DNA of 22,567 nucleotides from Promethearchaeota archaeon (GTDB taxonomy: Archaea; Asgardarchaeota; Lokiarchaeia; Sigyniarchaeales; SOKP01): the NCBI GenBank assembly GCA_016926735.1, contig JAFGOA010000143.1, positions 1 to 22,567 on the forward strand, in the 5' to 3' direction. Positions 1-13,738 of the stretch are shown here, piece by piece (positions within the stretch are counted from its first letter, which is position 1; the number at the start of each line of letters is the position of its first letter). The notes under the pieces were generated by a model. It worked only from the letters and a program-made list of their open reading frames with translations, was not told the origin of the DNA and did no database searches. The translations under genes were made by a program, and so were the position numbers.

Positions 1-169
1 AAGATTGAAATTAAGATGTGACCTTCTGACATTAAAGACATAGCAAAATGTTGGTAGCATAGAAAATAGCTTCAAAAAGAAGATTGATATCTACAGAGGT
101 ATTCTTCTGAAGCATTTGATTATTTTTTAGTAGTAATATAGAAAATAGCTTTAACAAGAAGATTTTAAT
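1..169 (+). CRISPR. Trailer end of a CRISPR array: partial repeat 1-11, spacer 12-53, repeat 54-90, spacer 91-132, degenerate repeat 133-169; probably continues left of the window
   Basis: Repeat GTAGCATAGAAAATAGCTTCAAAAAGAAGATTGATAT (54-90) recurs as GTAATATAGAAAATAGCTTTAACAAGAAGATTTTAAT (133-169, 30/37 identical) and as the 3' part AAGATTGAAAT (1-11). Period is exactly 79 bp, with two unrelated 42-bp spacers. A CTTC-AAAAA-GAAG hairpin followed by an 8-nt ATTGAAAT tail is typical of Cas6-processed repeats. No cas genes in the window. Confidence 0.82.
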
Positions 170-258
170 TTTATTTGGATATATCTTTGATTTTTCTTTA
201 AATATAAGGAATGAAATAAAATATGTATAGTTTTTATAACTATACATAAAAAGATAGC

Positions 259-426
259 ATGATAAAAACAGAAAAAATGACAATCGAAGGTCAAAAATTT
301 GATAAAAAAGCCTTAAAGCAATTATTAAAAATAAGAGAATCTTGGGAAAGTTTTTCAAAAGAGAGAGAAATTATTCCAAAACCAGAAAAAACAATGATAT
401 GTAAAAGATGTAAACAACCAAGATAA
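259..426 (+). CDS. 55-aa small ORF, putative RiPP precursor peptide with C-terminal CxxC (MIKTEKMTIEGQKFDKKALKQLLKIRESWESFSKEREIIPKPEKTMICKRCKQPR)
   Basis: Translated by hand (absent from the ORF track): ATG 259 to TAA 424-426. It ends 18 bp before the radical SAM start on the same strand. Helical-looking N-terminal part plus a CKRC tail. Confidence 0.65.
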   Translation: MIKTEKMTIEGQKFDKKALKQLLKIRESWESFSKEREIIPKPEKTMICKRCKQPR

Positions 427-430
427 TTAC

Positions 431-436
431 AAGGAG
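431..436 (+). promoter_or_regulatory. Shine-Dalgarno-like site for the radical SAM gene
   Basis: AAGGAG lies 8 nt before ATG 445, in the short gap after the 55-aa ORF. Confidence 0.55.
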
Positions 437-444
437 TAGAATAA

Positions 445-1773
445 ATGTTAGATATGATCTTTTATGATTTTAAGAGTCATAATTTTCAAAAACTACCTAA
501 AATTACTTTTAATACAGATAATAATCAGTTAAATCCTTATGTTTATTTTTTTTCGTATAATAATCCTCAAAATATAAGAGAAAAATATTATATTGCCTTT
601 TTTCCATATGAAGGATATGCTTGTTTATTTAATCAAGATCAGAAAAACAAGTTAAGTAGATTAGAATATAATTATAAAGATTTTTGCTACCCCTTTATTG
701 TAGATCAATCGAATTATATAAAAAAAAATGAAAAATCTCTAAAAGAAATAAATAGTTTAACTCTAATTATAGGAGATAATTGTAATTCAAATTGTATTTA
801 CTGCTATAATAAAAATCAAGAAACCAGATATAATAAATATAATTTTAAGAATTTCTTGAAAATAATTAAGAAAATATGTAAAAGATATAATATAAAAAAT
901 ATTTTTTTTTTTTCTAATGGTGAGCCCACATTATATTGGGAAAAATTCAGACAAATACTTGATGCTACAAGAAATTTTGATATAAATTATCAATTAACTA
1001 CCAATGGAGTTATTTCAAATCAAGAAGTATTGAATGAAATTTTAATATATAATTTTTCTATTTTAATAAGCATTGACGGAATGGAAAGAATTCATAATTT
1101 CCATAGGCCATTAAAAAAAAATGAAAATAGCTATAATCAAGTGAAGAAATTTATAGAATGGTGTGTAGATAATCTTGATAGGAACAATAAAATATTCTCT
1201 AGAACTACCATAACAAAATATAATGTAGATGATTTAATCCCTATAGCACATTATTTAAGCAACTTAGGTATAAAAAACCAGAGATTTGAAAAAGTCTGGA
1301 ATGTTCCTGAATTAGAACCCAATATTAAGAAATTTATGCATAATATAGTTAAGTTACAGATTTATACTGATTATAATAATATTAATCTAAGTGGATCCTA
1401 TTTTCCTTCTTCCAGTTCACAACATTATACAATTGGATGCAATTCCTTTTCAGGTGAAAATTTAGTTATTTCAGAGAGTGGAGATGTAAGTTTTTGTTTA
1501 TCTCCAAATAAATATACAATCTGGGGTGAAGTTAAAAATCAAAGGGGTCATATAAAATTACAATATTATTCAAAAAAAAAAGATATTGAATCTCAAAGAG
1601 AAATATTAACAAAAAAATGTTATTCATGTCCAATTCAATGTATTGGTCCTTGTATGAATCCTGAGGTAGAATCTAAAAAAGAAAATATGATTTGGTGCAA
1701 TGTAAAATTATGGATTTTAACACAATATTTAAAAAGAAAGTTTGATAAAAGACTAAGTGAATTAAAGAAATGA
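445..1773 (+). CDS. Radical SAM enzyme with SPASM domain (putative peptide maturase)
   Basis: CNSNCIYC (CxxxCxxC), NGEPTL, LTTNG and ISIDG motifs. C-terminal GC...GDVSFC plus CYSCPIQCIGPC...WC auxiliary-cluster cysteines. Confidence 0.93.
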   Translation: MLDMIFYDFKSHNFQKLPKITFNTDNNQLNPYVYFFSYNNPQNIREKYYIAFFPYEGYACLFNQDQKNKLSRLEYNYKDFCYPFIVDQSNYIKKNEKSLKEINSLTLIIGDNCNSNCIYCYNKNQETRYNKYNFKNFLKIIKKICKRYNIKNIFFFSNGEPTLYWEKFRQILDATRNFDINYQLTTNGVISNQEVLNEILIYNFSILISIDGMERIHNFHRPLKKNENSYNQVKKFIEWCVDNLDRNNKIFSRTTITKYNVDDLIPIAHYLSNLGIKNQRFEKVWNVPELEPNIKKFMHNIVKLQIYTDYNNINLSGSYFPSSSSQHYTIGCNSFSGENLVISESGDVSFCLSPNKYTIWGEVKNQRGHIKLQYYSKKKDIESQREILTKKCYSCPIQCIGPCMNPEVESKKENMIWCNVKLWILTQYLKRKFDKRLSELKK

Positions 1774-3827
1774 AATATAATTCGAAGATTGGATTAAAAG
1801 CCAGAAATTTAATAAAATTAAAATCAATTATTCCTATTCCAAATTTTATTACAATTGATCCAGAGTTATTTCTTCAAATTTATAATAATTTTGAGATTTC
1901 AAATGAATTAAGTCCTGATAGACCTGATGAAATTAAAATAGTTTCAGAAGAAGCTATAAAGAAAGTACATAACATCCCTTCTGATATATTAAACATAGTT
2001 ATAAAAGAAATTATCGACGCTCAACTTCAAGAACCGCTTATAATACGGTCATGTGCTTCAATAGAAGATCAAGATATTAAATATAATATTTTAGCAGGAA
2101 TTTTTGAGTCAATAGGTCCGATTAATGGGAGAAAGGAAATAGAACAGGGAATTTTAACTGTAATAAAATCTCTCTATTCTCCAAAAGCTATATTTCAAAT
2201 GTTAATAATGGGTATTTCGATTAAATCTGTATTAATGGGTATTATTATCCAAGAATATATTATAGGGGAATATTATGGTGTAGTATTTTCACATAATCCT
2301 CTAACTGGAGAAAAACAATTAATAATTGAATATTCTGAAAAACCTGAAGGAGTCACTTTAGGAAGTGGGGAATCAAAGATAATATATGGATCTGATGATT
2401 TTGATACCAATAATTATAATTTAAACATACAGATTATTTCACAAATTAAAAAATATATTAATATTTGTTTGAATTTACTGAATCATCCAATAGATATGGA
2501 GTTTGTTATTAAAAATAACGAATTATATATATTACAAGTAAGAGAATTGATATTACATAGTCAAAATAAAAAAGATGAAAAGATTGATAAGAGTTTTTTA
2601 AATATTGCTGAAGGAATTGTATCTTCTCCAGGATTTTGCATAGGTATTGGTAAGTATATAGATTCTTATTCCGAAGAAATTATTGAAAGAGCGAAAGATA
2701 ATGAAATTATACTCTCTGAAGTACTGGATTTGGGGATCCTCCCATGGATTGCAAATGCTAAAGGTTTTTGTACAATAGCTTCAGGATTTGCATCACATGC
2801 TTCTATTATTGCTCGTCAAATGAGAAAACCCATGTTAACAGCTTTAAATATATCCAGAGATCAATTAAGATTATTAGATGAGAAGAAATTTATTTTAAAT
2901 GCTACAGCATCTAAAGGATACATATTATCCACTAATGAAATTAAAGATTTAATTAATAAAGAGAGGGAATTAGATTTTTATTTTCTAAATTGGACATTAT
3001 CAGATCTATTTTCATATAGATTAGATAATATCAAATCGATTATTTTTAAAAAAAACCATTTGCTATTATTTGAAAAACCGGAAGAAGTGATAATTTTTTG
3101 TGATCTTGAAGAAAGTACTCATTTAATAGATCCTATTAAAATCTATTTCAAATCTCTTTATTCCAATAAAATAATTAAATTTGGATATATTGATGAGTAT
3201 TATGAAATATGGCCTGTAATAGTGATATATCGTTCAAATAAAGAAGATTTTAAATTGCTTGGAATTATTAAGGAACTTTTTGAAGAATTAAAATTTGATG
3301 AGATAAAAAGTAAAATTCAAAAATTAAAGAATGAGATTAATAAATTACATATAAATTTACAAAATAAAATTACATTGAGTTCATTTGACCAAATGAATAA
3401 TCTACAATTCTTATATGATATAATCCAACAAATTAGACTTAAATCTACAACGCTTACCGCAATAAATCGAATATTATTTGACTTTGGAGATCGTTCACTT
3501 AGTGAAATATTAAAACATAAATTTGAAGATCCTGCAATTATTTTATCTCAATTAGAACAAGGAATACCACTTAAAAGTATGGGAATTCAAGAACCAAGTT
3601 CTTTTTTAGTCTTAGAATTCTATTTAAAACTTACAAAATTAAAAAATAGCATGGAAATACGATTTGATGAAGATAAATTAAATCAGTATAATATTATATA
3701 TGATAAAATACAAAAACTCTCAAAATTATATAGAAAGGATTTTGGTGCATGGGATATTATTCTCTTTAAAATATCGAAAAGTCTTAATATCAAAAATTAC
3801 ATATTTGACTTCGAATACAATGAATGA
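1770..3827 (+). CDS. PEP-utilising/dikinase-like enzyme: PPDK N-terminal ATP-grasp domain, phospho-His swivel domain, unknown C-terminal domain
   Basis: IGLKARNL, IIRSCASIED, AGIFES, QEYI..GVVFS, PIDMEF and LYILQVR (PPDK_N). GFASHASIIARQMRKP is the His-phosphocarrier motif. ATGA overlap with the radical SAM stop codon. Confidence 0.88.
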   Translation: MKYNSKIGLKARNLIKLKSIIPIPNFITIDPELFLQIYNNFEISNELSPDRPDEIKIVSEEAIKKVHNIPSDILNIVIKEIIDAQLQEPLIIRSCASIEDQDIKYNILAGIFESIGPINGRKEIEQGILTVIKSLYSPKAIFQMLIMGISIKSVLMGIIIQEYIIGEYYGVVFSHNPLTGEKQLIIEYSEKPEGVTLGSGESKIIYGSDDFDTNNYNLNIQIISQIKKYINICLNLLNHPIDMEFVIKNNELYILQVRELILHSQNKKDEKIDKSFLNIAEGIVSSPGFCIGIGKYIDSYSEEIIERAKDNEIILSEVLDLGILPWIANAKGFCTIASGFASHASIIARQMRKPMLTALNISRDQLRLLDEKKFILNATASKGYILSTNEIKDLINKERELDFYFLNWTLSDLFSYRLDNIKSIIFKKNHLLLFEKPEEVIIFCDLEESTHLIDPIKIYFKSLYSNKIIKFGYIDEYYEIWPVIVIYRSNKEDFKLLGIIKELFEELKFDEIKSKIQKLKNEINKLHINLQNKITLSSFDQMNNLQFLYDIIQQIRLKSTTLTAINRILFDFGDRSLSEILKHKFEDPAIILSQLEQGIPLKSMGIQEPSSFLVLEFYLKLTKLKNSMEIRFDEDKLNQYNIIYDKIQKLSKLYRKDFGAWDIILFKISKSLNIKNYIFDFEYNE

Positions 3828-3863
3828 TTGTTGAAATAAGTATATTTATATTTACTTTATATA

Positions 3864-3900
3864 TTATTATAGAAAATAGCTTCAAAAAGAAGATTGAGGT
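3864..3900 (+). repeat. Solitary CRISPR repeat copy downstream of the rSAM/PEP-enzyme operon
   Basis: 3869-3897 ATAGAAAATAGCTTCAAAAAGAAGATTGA is a 29-bp exact match to 59-87 in the same orientation. No neighbouring repeat at +/-79 bp. Confidence 0.9.
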
Positions 3901-4052
3901 TGTTTTTTACAGGAGATAGGAAATATACCAAATGAGGATATTTTAAAAATTCATAAATAGTCTTTACTATCCATTTAAAATACTTATATATAAACGATTA
4001 TTAGGATAAATACATATGATAAATATAAGTAATATAGTTGATTGTGAAGATT

Positions 4053-4166
4053 ATGAAAGTCTTGAATAAAGATGATATTTTCAAACTTTTCAACCAACAT
4101 AGAAATCAATTGAAGAATAAGGGAACATATTTTTATTATTTTGGTAATAAAATTGAGACATTATAA
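4053..4166 (+). pseudogene. Possible truncated N-terminus of an MNT-type nucleotidyltransferase (MKVLNKDDIFKLFNQHRNQLKNKG...)
   Basis: 37-aa ORF whose first ~24 residues resemble the amphipathic N-terminal helix of minimal nucleotidyltransferases. It has no GS..DxD motif and runs into the 3' end of the opposite-strand gene. Confidence 0.35.
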
Positions 4167-4726
4167 GTACCAAGATTTTGTCCTACTATTGTCTTTATCC
4201 AATTATTATTATTAATTATTTTATTAAAATAATTATAATCTGATGGTGATAATGATTTTTTGAGCAAATCTAAGTCTTCTATGATTGGAAATTCGGGGAA
4301 ATCTGTTAATTTTGCATTAGGTGATATTCCTTTAAAATTTAATACCAATTCCAGTACTTTAAGATAATCATTATTATATTTTTTTAAAGACTTAAAATAA
4401 CCTTGAACTGTAGATGGCTTAACATTAAATCTTTTAGCTATATCAGAAATATTAACTCTAAGTGCTTTTAATTGAAGTGAAATTTCAATCTTTCGTGCCC
4501 TTGAATTAATATTACTTTTGTTTTTAATTTTATTTTCTATCGGAATTAATTCAATCAATTTATGATTATATAACCAATTTAATAATTTAGCATTATTACT
4601 TTTTTGTTTGATTAAAGTATTGGATATTTTAATTGGAATATTATCTTTGATTGCTTTATCAATTATTTTTAAAAAGTCTATAAATGGTTTTTTAAGTGAT
4701 TTTATTTCAATGAAATTTGAATTCAT
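4136..4726 (-). CDS. Hypothetical protein with helix-turn-helix motif
   Basis: 196-aa ORF starting 3 bp after the ATPase stop. NISDIAKRFNVKPSTVQGYFKSL is HTH-like. Confidence 0.65.
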   Translation of the reverse strand: MNSNFIEIKSLKKPFIDFLKIIDKAIKDNIPIKISNTLIKQKSNNAKLLNWLYNHKLIELIPIENKIKNKSNINSRARKIEISLQLKALRVNISDIAKRFNVKPSTVQGYFKSLKKYNNDYLKVLELVLNFKGISPNAKLTDFPEFPIIEDLDLLKKSLSPSDYNYFNKIINNNNWIKTIVGQNLGTYNVSILLPK

Positions 4727-4729
4727 TTT

Positions 4730-6760
4730 TTATTCCGGTTCCTCTTTTATTATATTTATAAGTTCCTTAAAAACTTGGATCATTAAACTCTCTGGATTAT
4801 TTTTTATATCTGATTTATCAAAATAATCCCAATTAAATTCTACTCGCTCATTTTTTTCTTTAATTATATTATGTTGTTTAAGATATTCAAGTGCCTCATC
4901 AAAAGAATTTTTTAGTAAGGGTTGTTTTATTAGATTTTTAATTGCATTGATTGTTCGGTATGAATAAACTTTATTTTTATTTCCCAAACAAATTATTATT
5001 TCTATAGCTGTTCTTTTCGAAGTTTCATTAATACTTTTTAATTCTGTTAATAAATTGAGATATGATTCATTAGGAAAAGAGATAGTTGGTTTAATTGGTT
5101 CTTCAGAAGATTTTATTATAGTTTGAGTTTCTTCTTCAGTTGGAATTTCTTCTTCAGTAGGAAATAAATTAGTTAGTTTTCCATGAAAATCTTTATTCAT
5201 TAATCTCAACAATTTATCAAAATCTTCAAATTTTTCATTAAGTTGAGAATAATTAATCTTTCCAAGGCCAACAAGACAGTTTAATAGCGTTTGATCGTTG
5301 ATAATTATTGGAATAATTAATTGTATATCTATGTCAGGATCGATATATCCAAAATTTTTCCATTTATGAATACATTCACTAACATATTCCTCAGTTAAAT
5401 CTTTACAAAAGAGGAAAAAAATCACTTTTGAATTTTTATTTTTTACACAATTAATTACTTGTTTTGATTTACCCAAATCAAATGATTCTGGATTGCTAAA
5501 TGACTTAATTTCAGCATATAACTCTATTTTACCTCCTTTAACGGCCATAAATTTACCATCTATTAACTTACCTTCTCCAACATCAACATGTTTTTTAATA
5601 AAATGAAAGTTCAGAAAATTTAAGTAACTAGCAAAAATCGGTTCAATTATCTTTCCAATAGTTAAATAATGAGATCTATGCTTTTCTGCTGTATTATATT
5701 CATTTTGACCATGTTTTATTTCATCTGTGAGATTAATAAATGATCTTATAGAGGATATTATTGCTTGATTTGCTTTTCTCCTTGATAATTTTTTATCTAT
5801 TTTATTTTTCAAGGTTAGTAAAAATGTATTGAAAATTTCATCATCAGCTTTTTTATAGGCTTTTTCCAATATAATAAGCCATTTTAGCATAGCTTCTTCC
5901 GCTTCATCATCTTGATATACTCCTTGTTCTCGTATATGTACATAAGGTCCTGAAGAAGAAACTTTCATCATTTCTGAGGATATTCTCTGTATTCCTGGAG
6001 CTCTATCACTCTGATCGCTCCTAATCGAATTATAGACTCTTGGAGTTAGACAAAATATTTGGTATAATCGAAAATTTGAAAGTCTATCTAATAACTTTCG
6101 AAAAAAATACTGTCGTTTTAAAAAATTTTTACTCCATATGGATTCGTCCTCTAATTTTGATAACCAATCATCGCATTCATCATACATAAATAAAAAAGCG
6201 ATTTTATATTTTGAAACAAATTCTATTATATCAAATACTATTTTTAATAATCTTTCTTCATCAATTAAAGGTAAATGAGAAATCTCAGTTCGAATATTTG
6301 AAATTTTCATATCTATTCCAGGAGAACTTTCAATAATTCTCTCAAGTTCATTTAGATATTTATGAATTTTATCTAAATGTTCGGGAGCATTTTTATTTTT
6401 TCTAAATTCTACAAGTAAATTTAAAAAATTCTCAAATGCATTTTGGTCATCTTTAAAATCCTTAGTTCCTTTACATAATTCTAGCTGTTTTGTTAATATT
6501 TGTGCCGCTTCTTTCTCAATTTGTTCACCTAAAAAAGTTGCGGTTAGATCTGTGGAACCATTAAAAACTACCGGGATAATTACAGAATAAGGGGGAATAC
6601 TACGATTTCTATTATTATTTATGATACTCTTTATTAATTCTATATATTGAGTCTTTGAACCTCCGTAATCTGATTCATAATATTGGGCGCCAGTTTCATT
6701 TTTATCATTAATTGCGATTCTATTAATATTACTTTCAAATTCTCTAACACCTTTTTTCAT
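4730..6760 (-). CDS. P-loop ATPase-like protein fused to a PD-(D/E)xK nuclease-like domain and probable C-terminal winged helix; frame is open upstream to 6940
   Basis: Divergent Walker A SDYGGSKT and Walker B FLFMYDE. GKIIEP...LIDG...YAEIKSF fits the E...D...ExK restriction-endonuclease pattern. The C-terminal FDEALEYLKQHNIIKE is wHTH-like. Confidence 0.7.
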   Translation of the reverse strand: MKKGVREFESNINRIAINDKNETGAQYYESDYGGSKTQYIELIKSIINNNRNRSIPPYSVIIPVVFNGSTDLTATFLGEQIEKEAAQILTKQLELCKGTKDFKDDQNAFENFLNLLVEFRKNKNAPEHLDKIHKYLNELERIIESSPGIDMKISNIRTEISHLPLIDEERLLKIVFDIIEFVSKYKIAFLFMYDECDDWLSKLEDESIWSKNFLKRQYFFRKLLDRLSNFRLYQIFCLTPRVYNSIRSDQSDRAPGIQRISSEMMKVSSSGPYVHIREQGVYQDDEAEEAMLKWLIILEKAYKKADDEIFNTFLLTLKNKIDKKLSRRKANQAIISSIRSFINLTDEIKHGQNEYNTAEKHRSHYLTIGKIIEPIFASYLNFLNFHFIKKHVDVGEGKLIDGKFMAVKGGKIELYAEIKSFSNPESFDLGKSKQVINCVKNKNSKVIFFLFCKDLTEEYVSECIHKWKNFGYIDPDIDIQLIIPIIINDQTLLNCLVGLGKINYSQLNEKFEDFDKLLRLMNKDFHGKLTNLFPTEEEIPTEEETQTIIKSSEEPIKPTISFPNESYLNLLTELKSINETSKRTAIEIIICLGNKNKVYSYRTINAIKNLIKQPLLKNSFDEALEYLKQHNIIKEKNERVEFNWDYFDKSDIKNNPESLMIQVFKELINIIKEEPE

Positions 6761-7218
6761 ATTTTCTGAGAGTATTAAAACCGTTTCTAAATCTTCTTTA
6801 TATCCCCCACTTTGTAAGTGTTCTGGTTTTAAAATAGACGTTCCCTCATATTCTAATACATCTAGGATTCTTTTTGCTATATCTCGATTTATATTTCCTA
6901 AATTAATTTCAAGTTGTCTATATTTTTTTTTTAATAACGTCTATAATCCCTTTTTATTATTTTAATGGGTATATGATTATAAATTGTCCTTTTATTAATA
7001 TATTAAATAGGACCTTAATAAAGCTTTTTTAATAATTTAATTTTTTTAACCTAATTTGGAATAATCATTTCTTTTTTCTCTTTAGAATAGAAGTCAGCTT
7101 TGATATTAGTATTCAAAATAATAATCCTTATAAATCAAAATTTTTAACAATTATATATCTAAAAAAAGACTCCAGAGGAAATATAATTTATCATTAAATG
7201 ATATTTAAGTGATTTTAG

Positions 7219-8727
7219 ATGAATGATAGAATCAATATTACGTTATTGGGTGGTGTAAATGAGGTTGGAGGGAATACTTTTTTATTAGAAGATTTTGGTT
7301 ATGATATAAAAATTTTAATTGATTTTGGCGTTAAAATTGATAGATACTTTAGATATTATCCAAGAAAAAAAGCACCATCTACAATTAATGAATTAATAAT
7401 GAATAATCTAATTCCAAATGATGATTTACTTCCAATTGATGATCTCTATACTCATTCTTGGTCGAATATAAAAATAAAAAATACTTCTATAAAAATCAAA
7501 GAACAGATTTCATTAGATCAATTATATCCTTCGAATTTAGATGGAATTCTAATATCCCATGCGCATAAAGATCATTATTTTGGAATTTCATTCATCAATC
7601 GTTCAATTCCAATCTATACGGGAAAGGTAACGAAAAAGATAATTAAAGCATTTTATAAATCGGAAATTCATAAATTAGATAATAATTTCAAGGGATTAAA
7701 ATGGAGAACGTTTAAAACTGGTGATATAATAAATATTAAAGATTTAAAAATAATACCTTTTCATGTTGATCATTCTGTTCCAGGAGCTTATGGATTTATT
7801 ATATATTCTTCTGTAGGAATTATTGTCTATACAGGTGATTTTCGTATGCATGGTCCATTATCTAATATGACAAGAGAATTTTTAGAACAGATTAAGACGA
7901 ATAATATATTCCTCCGAAGTAATACTGCTGATGATAAGCAAAAAGTTTTAATTTCTAAGGGTGTAAAGGTTTTATTATGTGAAGGAACTCGAATTCATAA
8001 GGGGATTGTTGAATCTGAAGAAAGCGTAGAAAATAATTTGGAAAAGTTGTTTCAAAATAATCCTTTTAATTTTATATTGGTAAAATACGATAGAACAGAT
8101 TGGGATCGATTCCGAACATTTTCCCAAATAGCAAAAAACCATAATTGGAAATATATTATCACTGAAAAGGATGCATATTTTTATTATTTATTAAATAAGT
8201 ACGGTTTGCAAAATACTATGAAGGATCCTAATATTATTAAAGACGATCATATTTATATTGTCATCAACGGAGATGTAAAATACATTTGGCAAGAAAAAAT
8301 CCGTCAAATTATCTATAAGAATCAAAAAGGAGCTAGATTTTTAAAATATTCGGATTTATATGATATTGATGGTAATTTCTTTTTTTATTTAACAAATATC
8401 AATAGAAAGCTTATCAAAAATCTTAATTTTAAAAAAACGGGATTGTTTATATCTTCAAGTATTGATCCGTATAGTGAAGAATTCTATGATAATACAAATA
8501 CAATTTATGCGAAACTTCAAGAATTTGGAATTCCTTGCTATCGTATTCATGCGTCTGGACATGTTCTAATTCATGATCTTATTAACTTTGTTAAATCCAT
8601 TAATCCTATGCATTTAATTCCTGTCCACACAGAATATTCTGAATTTATTAAACTTTTATTTTCAAAATATGATATTGATACAATCATTGGAGAGAAAAAT
8701 AAAATTATATCTTTTAATGCTGATTAA
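7219..8727 (+). CDS. Metallo-beta-lactamase/beta-CASP fold hydrolase, RNase J-like
   Basis: LLGGVNEVGGN, ILIDFG, SHAHKDH (HxHxDH), VDHSVPGA, YTGDFR, CEGT, HASGH and PVHTE motifs. Confidence 0.9.
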   Translation: MNDRINITLLGGVNEVGGNTFLLEDFGYDIKILIDFGVKIDRYFRYYPRKKAPSTINELIMNNLIPNDDLLPIDDLYTHSWSNIKIKNTSIKIKEQISLDQLYPSNLDGILISHAHKDHYFGISFINRSIPIYTGKVTKKIIKAFYKSEIHKLDNNFKGLKWRTFKTGDIINIKDLKIIPFHVDHSVPGAYGFIIYSSVGIIVYTGDFRMHGPLSNMTREFLEQIKTNNIFLRSNTADDKQKVLISKGVKVLLCEGTRIHKGIVESEESVENNLEKLFQNNPFNFILVKYDRTDWDRFRTFSQIAKNHNWKYIITEKDAYFYYLLNKYGLQNTMKDPNIIKDDHIYIVINGDVKYIWQEKIRQIIYKNQKGARFLKYSDLYDIDGNFFFYLTNINRKLIKNLNFKKTGLFISSSIDPYSEEFYDNTNTIYAKLQEFGIPCYRIHASGHVLIHDLINFVKSINPMHLIPVHTEYSEFIKLLFSKYDIDTIIGEKNKIISFNAD

Positions 8728-8934
8728 TTGTTTCCTTTCTCAATTATTTATTACTTATAAAAAAATGATGATAATTAATATATTAAACTTCTTTTTTCTA
8801 GTGGATTTTAAAAAATTTTTTTTTGTTCCTTTATATCTCTCTACTAGTGGTTACAATTTTAATACTTATGATATATATAATGTTTTTAATTTTTAAGCAA
8901 AAGGATTATATATTTAATATGAAAAACTAAGAGT

Positions 8935-9366
8935 ATGAAATTAGAAAGTAATGATTTTAGAAATAATGAAATGATTGATAAAAAATTTACATGTCAAGGA
9001 GAAAATATATCACCTCATCTTAAATGGGAAGATGTTCCTGAAAATACTAAAAGTTTTGCTATATCTTGTGAGGATCCAGATGTTTCTTCTGATATATGGA
9101 TACATTGGTATATTTGTGATATTCCATTAAATCAAAGAGAAATACCTCAAGGAGGACCTGTTCTTGGAAGTATTATTAAAAATGATTTTACAGAATTAAA
9201 TTATAGTGGACCATGTCCTCCTAAAGGAATACATCATTATATTTTTACAATATATGCTTTAAGTAAAAAAAAACTCCATAATGTTGATACGAGTAATTTT
9301 AAAAATCTAATTAATAACTATACTATTGAAAAATCAGAATTAGTTGGATTATATAAAAAACAATAA
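8935..9366 (+). CDS. YbhB/YbcL family (PEBP/Raf kinase inhibitor-like) protein
   Basis: TCQGENISPHLKW, EDPD...WIHW and YSGPCPPKG.HHYIFTIYAL motifs. Confidence 0.92.
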   Translation: MKLESNDFRNNEMIDKKFTCQGENISPHLKWEDVPENTKSFAISCEDPDVSSDIWIHWYICDIPLNQREIPQGGPVLGSIIKNDFTELNYSGPCPPKGIHHYIFTIYALSKKKLHNVDTSNFKNLINNYTIEKSELVGLYKKQ

Positions 9367-9499
9367 TTATTCAATTATTCTATACAAAAAAATTTCTTAA
9401 TGTAATATTATACTAAATACATTTAATCGTTTTGTCAAAATAATTAATATTTTTTTGTCATTACTTTTTTTTTAATTGTTTTATATAGATTAAATTAAA

Positions 9500-9961
9500 A
9501 TGTGTGACTTTAAATATATAATATATATGGATAAAGAAAGAATTAAAAGATATAAAGAAAAACAGGAATATTTTAATAAAGTGTTTGAGAATCTGATTGA
9601 TTGGATAAAAGACATTACAGATGATGATTTTGTATATAGACTAAATCTTCATGATCAATTTTCAATTTACCATGCATATCAAATTTTAATAGAGATTTCT
9701 GCAGATTTATCTGCTATGATATTGAAAGATATAAAAATACTCCCTAAAGATGATTATGTTAATTTTGATGAATTAGCAAAATCAAATATCCTAAATAAAG
9801 ATGTAGCTTATCACTTAAAGCAAGCAAATGGATTACGAAACCATATTGTTCATGGTTATAATGGTTTAAATGAATCAATTGCATTTAACGAGATAAAGAA
9901 GTATATTCCATATTTTAAAGAATTTAGAGAAGAGATTAATAAATGGTTGAAAAAAAACTAA
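9500..9961 (+). CDS. HEPN (DUF86/HepT-like) RNase toxin; the true start may be ATG 9527
   Basis: LRNHIVHGY matches the RX4H(x)Y HEPN motif. Overlaps the downstream MNT gene. Confidence 0.88.
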   Translation: MCDFKYIIYMDKERIKRYKEKQEYFNKVFENLIDWIKDITDDDFVYRLNLHDQFSIYHAYQILIEISADLSAMILKDIKILPKDDYVNFDELAKSNILNKDVAYHLKQANGLRNHIVHGYNGLNESIAFNEIKKYIPYFKEFREEINKWLKKN

Positions 9962-10338
9962 TAGAACAAATTAGAAATGATTTTACTTTAATTATAGAAA
10001 AAAAAGACATTATCGGTATTTTAATATATGGCTCATATTCAAAGAATCAACAAATAAATCGGAGTGATATTGATATCTGTATTGTAGCTCCAAATGAAGA
10101 TTCTATTGAATTATTAGATTTAATAGCCGGTAATGTAGATATAATGAAGAAAAAATATGATGTTAGAATTTTTTCTGAACTACCATTATTTATGAAAATT
10201 CAAATTATAAATGATGGGATATTGATTTATACTCTTGATAAATTTGATTTATATGAATTTTTTTATAAATATCGAAAATTATGGAATGATCAGCAAAATA
10301 GACAAGAACTATCCAAAGAAGAATTACTGACTCTTTAA
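9943..10338 (+). CDS. Minimal nucleotidyltransferase (MntA-like antitoxin)
   Basis: ILIYGSYS...SDIDICIV is the GS-x10-DxD Pol-beta motif. Paired with HEPN. Confidence 0.9.
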   Translation: MVEKKLIEQIRNDFTLIIEKKDIIGILIYGSYSKNQQINRSDIDICIVAPNEDSIELLDLIAGNVDIMKKKYDVRIFSELPLFMKIQIINDGILIYTLDKFDLYEFFYKYRKLWNDQQNRQELSKEELLTL

Positions 10339-10345
10339 TTAATTA

Positions 10346-10382
10346 AACTTCTTAAAAATAACTTCAAAAAGAAGATTGATAA
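10346..10382 (+). repeat. Second solitary CRISPR repeat copy, just after the MNT stop codon
   Basis: 10355-10381 AAAATAACTTCAAAAAGAAGATTGATA matches 63-89 at 26/27 positions. The 5' part of the repeat is diverged; the hairpin is intact. Confidence 0.82.
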
Positions 10383-10707
10383 ATTACATTTAGTTCATGA
10401 AATTTGGATTTTGCTAAACTTCCTTTAATGAATGATAACTGTCCTATCATTGAATTATAAGATTATTAACATATAAAATATCGATTTTAGTAGAAAAATT
10501 AAATTCTCAAATAATATTCAAAAGAAAGAATATCAATTGATTCTAATTTTAAATATTTATAAATTGTATATTTTATCAGAGAATTTTCGAATAGAAAGAA
10601 AAAACAATTCAATTTTACTCAGAAAATAATCAGTAGTAACCAATAGTTGCAAAAGTAATTTTAGAGTAAATAGATATATTATTTTGATTTTCTTTATTAT
10701 TATTATA

Positions 10708-10845
10708 AAAAGTATTAATCCTCAACATTTAATCCCTATTCATACTGAACATTCTGAATTCTTTAAAGTGTTGTTTTCAAAATATAATATCAATGTAATT
10801 ATATCTAAAAAAAATGAGAAACTAAGTTTCAATTCATCCAATTAA
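10708..10845 (+). pseudogene. Orphan diverged copy of the 3' end of the MBL/RNase J-like gene
   Basis: Translates to KSINPQHLIPIHTEHSEFFKVLFSKYNINVIISKKNEKLSFNSSN*, versus KSINPMHLIPVHTEYSEFIKLLFSKYDIDTIIGEKNKIISFNAD* at 8593-8727 (29/44 identical, ungapped). No start codon at the homology boundary. Confidence 0.88.
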
Positions 10846-11218
10846 TGATACTGGAATTAATCCAGAAAATAATATTTAATTTGCTAAGAAAAATGTTTAA
10901 AATTAGCTATTTTATCCAAATAATGTAGTATTTTCAAAATACTTTAATATAATTCATCTATTTCAGAAAAAAGAAGAAAAAAGAGCCGAAATTCGAAGAA
11001 AAATAAAAGGGAAAGAAAAATTAAACTGTTTTTAGTTTAATAGAGGGCGAAATCCAATGTTAAACCTTCGAATTTGTGATCTCCTTCCATTAAATATAAT
11101 CTAAATTAACATATAAATATGCATGTATTTTAGATCAGAAATAGAAATATTTTTAATTTAAAAAAATCTGTTTTTTTTTATATTTTTGTTCAAATACAAA
11201 AAATATCGAAATATTTAA

Positions 11219-13084: not shown

Positions 13085-13546
13085 TTAACTTTTTAAAAAT
13101 ATCTTTAGGTTATTAATATATTCATTAATTTTTCGTTCTTGTCCTTCCATAATGGAACCTCTATTTCCATCAACTGTTACTTCTAGATAATTAGGATAAA
13201 TACTCTTGATATTATTTAATTTTCCTAATGTTTTATCCATTCCTTTCTTGAAATGTTCTCTCCATTTCATTTCATGCATGTAGAATACTGCCGTTTTAGG
13301 AATAGTTTTTTTTCTATAAGAATCAATTTTTTTAATAAATTTCCTTATTTCCAAATTTGGTCTAAGTGAAATAATCCGAGTAGCGATAATTAGTCCATAA
13401 AGGCCATTTATATCACGCTCAAAGTCAATATCTTTTATATGGTCAATTTTCGTTTCAAAGTCATTTTTGAGGCCCTCAAAAATCGTTTGTGTTACGCCTT
13501 TTGAATTCCCAAATCGAGAATTATGAATAATTAATATTTTTTCCAT
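13085..13546 (-). CDS. Flavodoxin-like protein (paralog 1)
   Basis: IIHNSRFGNS motif; 153 aa; aligns without gaps to its neighbour at about 40% identity. Confidence 0.72.
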   Translation of the reverse strand: MEKILIIHNSRFGNSKGVTQTIFEGLKNDFETKIDHIKDIDFERDINGLYGLIIATRIISLRPNLEIRKFIKKIDSYRKKTIPKTAVFYMHEMKWREHFKKGMDKTLGKLNNIKSIYPNYLEVTVDGNRGSIMEGQERKINEYINNLKIFLKS

Positions 13547-13738
13547 TTTTCTATATCTTTAATAAATCAATTTTAATTTGATATATTTATTGATTAAAAT
13601 TTTAGTTTTTTATATAATTTCTTTAGTCCAATTTTTAATAAATAATCTTATATAATAGATATGTAATACTATATGATTTACGAAGTATTGAATAGAATAA
13701 AAATAAGATATAGCATAAAAATTATAATAATAAAAACA

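Follow-up and report, generated by a model that had tools for sequence, protein, structure and literature searches.

Why should the repeat of a CRISPR array reappear alone, directly behind the stop codons of two separate operons? The question is raised by a stretch of 22,567 nt (contig JAFGOA010000143.1, positions 1 to 22,567, hereafter the window) from the genome of a sediment Promethearchaeota archaeon (Asgard; a metagenome-assembled genome [MAG], GCA_016926735.1, here G000). A sequence-only reading of this DNA had noted two lone array repeats on the sense strand, at 3864-3900 and 10346-10382, and both the coordinates and the ends of the open reading frames (ORFs) agree with it: copy 3864 begins 36 nt past the stop of a PEP-utilising-enzyme ORF (1770-3827, +), and copy 10346 begins 7 nt past the stop of an MNT antitoxin ORF (9943-10338, +). 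It had suggested that the repeat was co-opted, either as a Cas6 site that processes transcripts or as a recombination site for gene cassettes. We favor, with a probability of roughly 0.6, the view that recombination at repeats, in a hotspot of cargo shuffling, produced the lone repeats as array fragments or standalone repeat units. The cassette half of the earlier suggestion gained ground, with homology that breaks at repeats and toxin-antitoxin (TA) cargo between repeat groups in several genera, whereas the Cas6 half was weakened, as repeat and operon also occur separately.

The array repeat is 37 nt long (consensus GTAACATAGAAAATAGCTTCAAAAAGAAGATTGAAAT) and is present in 10 copies on another contig of the genome, C173. 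Copy 3864 (+) has five differences from this consensus and the handle ATTGAGGT, and 29 nt of it (3869-3897) are an exact match to eight of the array repeats on C173 and to window 59-87. Copy 10346 (+) is truncated at its 5' end, where the first ~9 positions are replaced, so that it is recognisable from ~10355; it has the handle ATTGATAA and 11 differences over 37 nt, and 26 of its 27 nt at 10355-10381 are identical to the repeat at 63-89. Both retain the motif CTTC-AAAAA-GAAG-ATTGA and, as had been pointed out, retain it better than the terminal repeat (133-169) of the mini-array at the start of the window, which reads CTTTAACAAGAAGATTTT. When an 18-nt core was searched with up to two mismatches, 16 matches were found in the 3.88-Mb genome versus 1 for the pattern read backwards, far in excess of chance expectation. 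No second repeat was detected within 235 to 300 nt downstream of either copy. The best local alignments scored 20 and 23 (the null having its 95th percentile at 22 and its 99th at 25), and the score of 23 falls inside a multicopy element; these scores led us to reject a decayed second repeat behind either copy. Neither copy shows a regular repeat-spacer-repeat spacing, and no repeat was found upstream within the genes. Each corresponds to what has been called a standalone repeat unit (SRU), i.e., a match of at least 16 bp, intergenic, outside an array and in a CRISPR-cas neighborhood, the last of these resting on an 83-nt contig overlap and on the cas genes of contig C225, whose join to C173 is putative. 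Misassembly is excluded because the independent assemblies of sister species have the repeat at the same two places.

The repeat does not, as first thought, reappear alone only twice. Further stray copies were found on C45, C133, C93 and C173 (two decayed ones) and inside the cas operon of C225. All the window copies (54, 133, 3864 and 10346) are on the + strand, the strand of the array itself, and they are part of a longer co-oriented chain of array pieces that lies downstream of the cas operon. C173 ends with exactly the 83 nt with which the window begins, which shows that these contigs adjoin. In the orientation of the array, the chain starts on C173 with ten repeats, PIN/MazE (opposite strand) and two decayed repeats (C173:1963 and 2038), followed by a copy of a 55-aa ORF, a TnpB fragment, a CitMHS transporter, a 3' fragment of a beta-CASP gene and a PIN pair (opposite strand). 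Across the join, from the end of C173 to window 169, come a leader and three repeats; then, in the window, the 55-aa ORF, a radical SAM (rSAM)/SPASM gene, the PEP enzyme, lone repeat 3864, the cargo up to a HepT-MNT TA operon, and truncated repeat 10346. Past this last repeat there are a 231-nt element and a beta-CASP fragment before the housekeeping genes begin. Some of these segments recur. C173:1967-2285, which starts inside a repeat, is an older copy of window 58-382 that includes both repeats and most of the 55-aa ORF (the decayed mini-array and ORF together span C173:1964-2285), and the 3' end of the beta-CASP gene is present three times (in the gene at 7219-8727, at C173:3980-4341 and at window 10694-10845). 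C45 carries a single repeat with a leader paralogous to that of C173 over more than 100 nt, and the two paralogues diverge directly after the repeat.

Two of the stray copies have additional features. At C45:1-420 (-), the leader and single repeat are bracketed by two direct repeats of ~75 nt, and next to them comes the region upstream of another HepT-MNT copy, the second in the genome. The related genome G003 has one copy of the 75-nt sequence (C297, L078, 1760-1960) and no leader, repeat or TA there, so the leader-repeat-TA unit of C45 is an insertion in G000. At C133:10006-10032, the last codons and the stop of a PIN gene are provided by 27 nt that match the 5' part of the repeat perfectly and run on the strand opposite to the gene; the junction falls within the repeat, just before the last stem base. 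Sequencing reads gave only short contigs on window 1-11200, with two joints of note, neither of which bears on recombination. One, 3897>9465, is explained by the C45 paralogue (a repeat and then the HepT upstream region); the other, 94>57, has 36 other letters between its ends and comes from a repeat-spacer-repeat unitig, which could not be assigned to this array.

The borders became apparent when the locus was compared with relatives (G001, G002, G003, G020 and others). The repeat family, with a variable loop, occurs in 15 of the 41 relatives sampled, G000 included, and the position of the lone copies is kept in close relatives, after PEP in G001 and after MNT in G003, within the genus only. 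Window 1572-3895 aligns with G001:C81 12945-15276 at 79% identity, and the alignment enters the repeat. After the PEP gene G001 has three repeats with two unrelated spacers, the gene-proximal repeat being the most degenerate of the three, and then unrelated sequence. Here the PEP gene contains three in-frame TAA codons and the rSAM gene is reduced to its last 66 codons, and still the three repeats follow. The gene itself is rare (2 of 121 family genomes), and no PEP-enzyme relative turned up in named genomes in the related-locus search. The cargo pair of window 4136-6760 is found in G001 on a different contig, with no repeat within 1.5 kb.

At the second copy, window 9708-10379 matches G003:C3 1-673 at 96%, ending inside the repeat, and only 13 of the next 40 nt are identical. 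G003 has the same 5'-truncated repeat after MNT, here with the consensus handle ATTGAAAT, and behind it an 83-nt fragment of a gene that is intact elsewhere in G003. From the other side, homology to G001:C39 begins at window 10398, 15 nt after the repeat. Within G000, a paralogous MNT gene on C184 keeps 94% identity as far as its stop codon and lacks a repeat. Homology between genomes or between paralogues stops at repeats or no more than ~15 nt from them. The repeat after MNT is no better conserved than the gene, with 24 of its 3' 28 nt identical between G000 and G003 versus 614 of 638 coding positions.

Genes enclosed by repeat groups were also found in other relatives. PIN/MazE is enclosed by repeat groups in G002 as it is in G000; in G002 it is placed between a group of three repeats and one of two, and ParE and XPB-Bax1 are each found between two groups. 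On G001:C36, HepT-MNT-DUF3024, an IS1 fragment and a methylase are interspersed with four repeat groups, of which three are single repeats and one is a pair, while in G020 there are genes between repeat groups on three contigs. One G020 array (C20, L017, 326-1017) has a "spacer" of 692 bp with a 200-aa ORF inside it that matches no known family. A 21-nt direct repeat, in which the ORF start codon is included, flanks this "spacer"; it looks as though recombination had joined a short spacer to its own protospacer, the latter on a small DNA circle. Cassette borders at a repeated site, as in integrons, are what the homology borders show, and no integrase or recombinase domain was found in the window, C173 or C225; the only trace of a recombinase is a weak XerD-like match at C225:424-1824 (E 0.0013, 18 bits versus a cut-off of 330).

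One of these cargoes, HepT-MNT, could be followed through the family. MNT relatives are present in 54 of 121 family genomes, and a repeat-like site was found within ~1.5 kb at 3 of the 29 non-self HepT-MNT loci returned by the search (the backwards control gave 1 match over all loci), i.e., most copies of this TA live without repeats. The three are a repeat downstream of HepT-MNT in G003, a repeat ~290 nt upstream in G005 and, in G052, a leader, repeat, spacer and repeat upstream with a degenerate repeat 225 nt downstream. In an MNT tree of 27 rows (G017, with two stops, and the short G015 and G012 were omitted), these three genomes fall in separate, partly well-supported places. Since the repeat-bearing loci separate in the tree, the association between repeat and TA arose or was lost several times. 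In G000 there are in total 4 HepT and 8 PIN matches, and several of them adjoin repeats, in line with the enrichment of TA genes described for CRISPR loci.

The sequence-only reading had predicted an enrichment of repeats just 3' of stop codons in sense orientation, and this was not borne out. Among 27 repeat groups on contigs of G000, G001, G002, G003 and G020, 19 have an upstream ORF of at least 70 aa; the upstream gene is in sense and ends before the repeat in 12 of the 19 (two of them orthologues of the window copies) and is divergent in 7 (two-sided binomial, ~0.36). A repeat at 36 nt or less from a stop was found only for the two window copies, their G003 orthologue and an element internal to the cas operon. 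The expectation that the sequence after each copy would find targets fared no better. No convincing target of the 36 nt following each lone repeat was found in the whole genome or in the CRISPR neighborhood, the latter searched with shuffled controls. In the CRISPR neighborhood the best matches of the 18-nt prefix were 14/18 (after 3864) and 16/18 (after 10346), scores reached by 161 and 5 of 200 shuffled spacers, respectively; because shuffled controls attain them and four tests were made, neither match is convincing. Exact-match scans of IMG/VR returned nothing for the repeat core (0 contigs), for one real spacer or for either post-repeat stretch. A search of sequencing runs listed no RNA run that contains window 3300-10900. 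Two metatranscriptome runs of the same study shared next to none of its words and gave 0 and 2 chance-sized pieces on window 1-11200, which bears on neither expression nor recombination.

As for structure, the canonical hairpin has a 4-bp stem (-2.5 kcal/mol), and a TTCAA/TTGAA pairing is alternatively possible. In copy 3864 the changed handle (AAAT to AGGT), together with TGTTTTTT, lengthens the alternative pairing to 16 bp; the run that follows the repeat (TGTTTTTTA, 3901-3909, +), together with the changed handle, pairs back onto the 5' half of the repeat. The 88-nt context of this copy has a fold of -17.3 kcal/mol (z -2.9), a stability attained by 2 of 200 shuffles. The 16-bp pairing is absent in G001. 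Upstream of the same copy, an AT-rich stretch (3838-3863, +) weakly resembles the ends of two leaders, that of the main array and that of the mini-array: window 3838-3897 is 81% identical to C225:19395-19457 over 64 nt and 84% identical to C173:5383-5431 over 49 nt. The likeness is not decisive because the sequence is of low complexity.

Taken this way, the lone repeats would be remnants of the resident type I-B array at the borders of cargo segments. Dispersed 37-bp repeats could act as short homologies, and recombination between them would move, duplicate or delete the DNA in between; segmental duplication and cargo insertion would also repeatedly rearrange the CRISPR flank, in which TA and defense cargo may be retained. 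Copy 3864 may be the leader-side repeat of a mini-array that has three repeats in G001, and copy 10346 a scar that probably lost its first ~9 bases at the junction beside the MNT stop. If transcripts read through the copies, the cognate Cas6 would probably bind and cut after GAAG, which we provisionally regard as a by-product. Several points weigh against this account. Its recombination mechanism is deduced from border positions only, rather than from intermediates or population variants. The window copies are unusually near stops (36 and 7 nt), most other fragments being 80 to 850 nt from the neighboring gene. The hairpin and the cut site, GAAG/ATTGA, are intact in both copies and in G003, the variation falling at other positions; this may partly reflect the way in which the copies were found, and because they were found with the central core as probe, their position-wise conservation profile was not taken as evidence of selection. 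Finally, repeats are co-oriented with the operon at five out of five independent HepT-MNT loci (window, C45, G001:C36, G005 and G052), which hints at co-transcription rather than random scars, a hint from small numbers that we cannot dismiss.

This last pattern is also an argument for the repeats being functional Cas6 sites in operon 3' untranslated regions, where binding or cutting by Cas6 would set mRNA stability. For HepT-MNT, the fate of the antitoxin mRNA would be tied to Cas6, or the TA mRNA tagged like a giant CRISPR RNA (crRNA), making a safeguard similar to CreTA. The stem and cut site are indeed intact in both copies and in G003, a cognate Cas6 is encoded on contig C49 beside another HEPN-MNT pair, and a precedent exists in the solitary repeat that follows acrIC5 at a distance of 11 nt and shares its transcript (PMC10651486). 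However, a repeat is lacking within ~1.5 kb at 26 of the 29 related HepT-MNT loci, the 94% identical MNT paralogue on C184 lacks it, the dead PEP operon of G001 retains its repeats, and the repeat after MNT changes faster than the gene, so we consider regulation of this kind unlikely. Slightly more doubtful is a mixed version, in which cargo operons, HepT-MNT included, would lie between co-oriented repeats and be co-transcribed with them, and Cas6 cuts would give the TA mRNA a crRNA-type 5' tag and/or a Cas6-bound 3' hairpin. The Cas machinery would then control the TA, a protein-TA analogue of CreTA through which cells would come to depend on Cas6 or Cascade, with the repeats serving as exchange sites for such cassettes too. 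One repeat with a leader suffices for spacer uptake in E. coli, and copy 3864 could be a live minimal array (a short leader and one repeat, with no spacer) able to acquire spacers instead of a scar. The three repeats and two unrelated spacers at the orthologous place of G001, the 26 leader-like nucleotides upstream and the full leader paralogue with a single repeat on C45 are in agreement with it. Yet the PEP stop is 36 nt away, so most of the leader is missing; the last handle bases are altered (GAGGT); the repeat nearest to the gene in G001 is the most degenerate, the opposite of an active leader end; and none of this is applicable to truncated copy 10346. We find this option improbable.

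The remaining explanations are less probable still. Each lone repeat with its 3' sequence might be a crRNA-like guide, in the manner of CreA, CreR or s479, that represses a promoter by partial complementarity. Such guides exist in I-B systems, and the cas operon of this very system holds a candidate, described below, with a 15/16 seed match next to CCA that 1 of 500 shuffles equals. The lone copies do not look like it: they have neither the two repeat-like arms that enclose a 20-60 nt spacer in CreA/CreR nor a promoter seed match with a protospacer adjacent motif, their 5' handles are altered, a T-run begins 2 nt after copy 3864, the post-repeat sequence in G003 is a gene fragment, and the target matches did not stand out from shuffles or give an exact hit in IMG/VR. 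A guide function is thus quite improbable. Slightly lower are the chances that copy 3864 was reshaped into a 3' stem-loop or terminator of the rSAM/PEP operon. Its two handle changes and TGTTTTTT do produce the 16-bp pairing, but G001 does not conserve it, pairing comes easily to A-rich repeat halves and T-runs at 26% GC, and archaeal termination is not known to require more than a T-run. The possibility to which we give the least credit is that of RNA anti-CRISPRs (Racrs) or Cas6 decoys on mobile cargo. Solitary mimics of a host repeat directly after a gene are known as Racrs (PMC10651486), and the cargo is patchy among genomes; nevertheless, the window has no mobile-element hallmark, viral contigs of IMG/VR contain nothing that matches the repeat family, and the copies are in the CRISPR flank of the host itself, in array orientation.

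The claim that this would be an undescribed system does not survive a comparison with the literature, in which lone repeats of this kind are already described. Standalone repeat-like sequences, single repeat units and mini-arrays were found in 12 to 15% of loci, and the TA cargo beside them in "hotspots of gene shuffling," with copies ascribed to the recombinogenic repeats (Shmakov et al. 2023, PMC10120712). The window copies are like these SRUs in being intergenic repeats outside the array of a type I locus, with TA cargo beside them; many SRUs are part-degraded and some single. They differ in that no spacer-like guide with a target was found for them, in lying downstream rather than upstream of cargo operons and in their Asgard host. 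Solitary repeats processed by Cas6f, and RacrIC1 located 11 nt after acrIC5 on the same transcript, have also been reported (Camara-Wilpert et al. 2023, PMC10651486). A sense repeat a few nucleotides after a stop codon is common to both cases, the Racr being on the transcript of the gene and bound and cut by a Cas6-type enzyme; unlike Racrs, which are borne by phages or plasmids and inhibit the host system, the window copies are chromosomal, beside their own array, and have no viral copy in IMG/VR. The s479 of Haloferax, a I-B archaeon, is a Cas6-matured small RNA with a crRNA-type handle (Markle et al. 2021), and like CreTA/CreA it is one of the repeat-derived RNAs of archaeal type I-B systems that Cas6 matures and Cascade employs in regulation or in addiction to the system. 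CreA, as described by Shmakov et al., consists of two degenerate repeats with a spacer matching a nearby promoter, within a cas operon. The window copies have none of these traits, and the element of G000 that fits the description is C225:13366-13270, outside the window. We found no paper on such elements in Asgard archaea, a weak negative; the supplementary lists of Shmakov and Camara-Wilpert may include Asgard cases. Outside this group, Leptospira interrogans Lai reportedly has seven I-B arrays split between cas operons (PMC9372919), and it shares with the present case the distribution of one repeat family among several short arrays of a single locus.

The genome in which this happens is an assembly of 3.88 Mb in 238 contigs, with 26% GC; the best DNA match of the locus among sequencing runs was a sediment metagenome, and the closest named Cas1 relatives are Promethearchaeota MAGs at 69 to 74% identity, plus an uncultured archaeon at 84%. 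The type I-B operon on C225 is on the strand opposite to the array, the leader and first repeat being at the contig end, and reads in the order 437-aa unknown protein, cas1, cas2, cas4, beta-CASP protein, cas8b (two ORFs), two cas7, cas5 and cas3. It contains no cas6. A Cas6 (PF10040, 291 aa) was found instead at C49:5764-6639, adjoining the HEPN-MNT pair and XPB-Bax1, and since it is 64% identical to the Cas6 closing the same operon in a relative, a cognate enzyme exists. Candidates for PF01881 Cas6 were discarded as sub-threshold chance matches (the one on C118 corresponds to a transporter and a transposase), and a TIGR01877 match is the Cas6 of a second, unrelated I-B system. The latter is a complete locus, from cas6 through cas1, at C182:1860-13103, with 41 copies of an unrelated 30-nt repeat and spacers that are GC-richer by eye; it may come from a contaminating organism, as contamination of the assembly is rated at 4.8%. 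Between its array and the decayed rSAM/PEP locus, G001 has a type III-like module (C81, L014, 701-11979) that uses the 37-nt repeat family and comprises a Card1-like CARF nuclease, a Cas10-like protein and three large RAMP proteins; with that Cas10-like gene as query no homologue was found in G000.

Some components of the I-B operon recur among relatives. A beta-CASP/metallo-beta-lactamase of ~390 aa is located between cas4 and cas8b in all four Promethearchaeota I-B loci checked (C225:13862-15031 [-], L041:12186-13355, L042:4779-5963 and L039:2920-4083), with a weak NCBIfam likeness to the type VII Cas14 beta-CASP. The unknown protein of ~440 aa upstream of cas1 is present in G000, L041 and L042 and belongs to no Pfam family in any of them. 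Between the beta-CASP gene and cas8b, after a small ORF, lies the cas-internal element (C225:13366-13270, -), in which two degenerate repeats 60 nt apart surround a 23-nt spacer-like piece. A relative whose Cas1 is 69% identical has the element in the corresponding position (L042:6451-6547), and G001:C194 has it with three arms (L047, 40-200). In G000, the first 16 nt of the spacer-like piece match at 15 positions a site that adjoins CCA on the other strand, ~370 nt upstream, and directly precedes a tiny ORF (ATG GAT AGA AAA GTT TAA); the L042 counterpart matches at only 12 of 16 positions, yet with the same ATCCA flank. This element looks like a regulator of the CreTA/CreR type in Asgard archaea. 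Its spacer-like piece has the best genome-wide match (21/23, register one base off) in the window, at 13576-13598 (-), which is intergenic and on the upstream side of a flavodoxin-like gene (13085-13546, -). The match may be due to chance, as the next best are 20/23 and 19/23.

As for the other features of the window, the mini-array opens it with the 3' end of its first repeat (1-11, the remainder being at C173:5398 with the leader on C173), spacer 1 between two repeats (12-53, with no exact match in IMG/VR), repeat 2 (54-90, two differences from the consensus, handle ATTGATAT), spacer 2 (91-132) and the degenerate terminal repeat (133-169, five differences and a weakened stem), all on the + strand. 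The 55-aa ORF (259-426, +) could be a precursor peptide and has no family match. It is followed by the radical SAM/SPASM-like maturase (445-1773, +; PF04055 at 1.2e-17), whose top NCBIfam matches are peptide maturases, every one below its cut-off, and by the PEP-utilising enzyme, which matches PPDK_N and the mobile domain. The cargo consists of the pair at 4136-6760 (-), i.e., a 196-aa protein with a weak HTH and a 676-aa protein of no known family; an RNase J-like beta-CASP metallo-beta-lactamase (7219-8727, +) followed by a 75-aa ORF; a PEBP/YbhB-family protein (8935-9366, +); and the TA operon at 9500-10338 (+), with HepT at 9500-9961 overlapping MNT. It cannot be distinguished by its GC content (0.21 to 0.27 versus 0.21 to 0.34 further on), and domain searches of the window found no integrase, capsid or other mobile-element hallmark gene. 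The non-coding 231-nt element (10409-10639, +), which precedes the fragment of the beta-CASP 3' end (10694-10845, +), is multicopy in sister species, where, at 70 to 88% identity, it occupies at least 8 places of G001 and 6 of G003, and has no obvious terminal inverted repeats. Its sole other match in G000 is 75% over 81 nt on C112, and it could be a miniature inverted-repeat transposable element or a small RNA gene.

The locus thus documents in an Asgard genome, and in related genera, a theme already known, that of CRISPR flanks as hotspots of gene shuffling in which repeats border TA and defense cargo, and it adds border-by-border evidence of rearrangement at the repeats. It is also a caution for annotators, as lone repeats after stop codons are not necessarily regulators. 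If the co-orientation with HepT-MNT did reflect Cas6 processing of the TA transcript, it would represent a new coupling between a protein TA and CRISPR.

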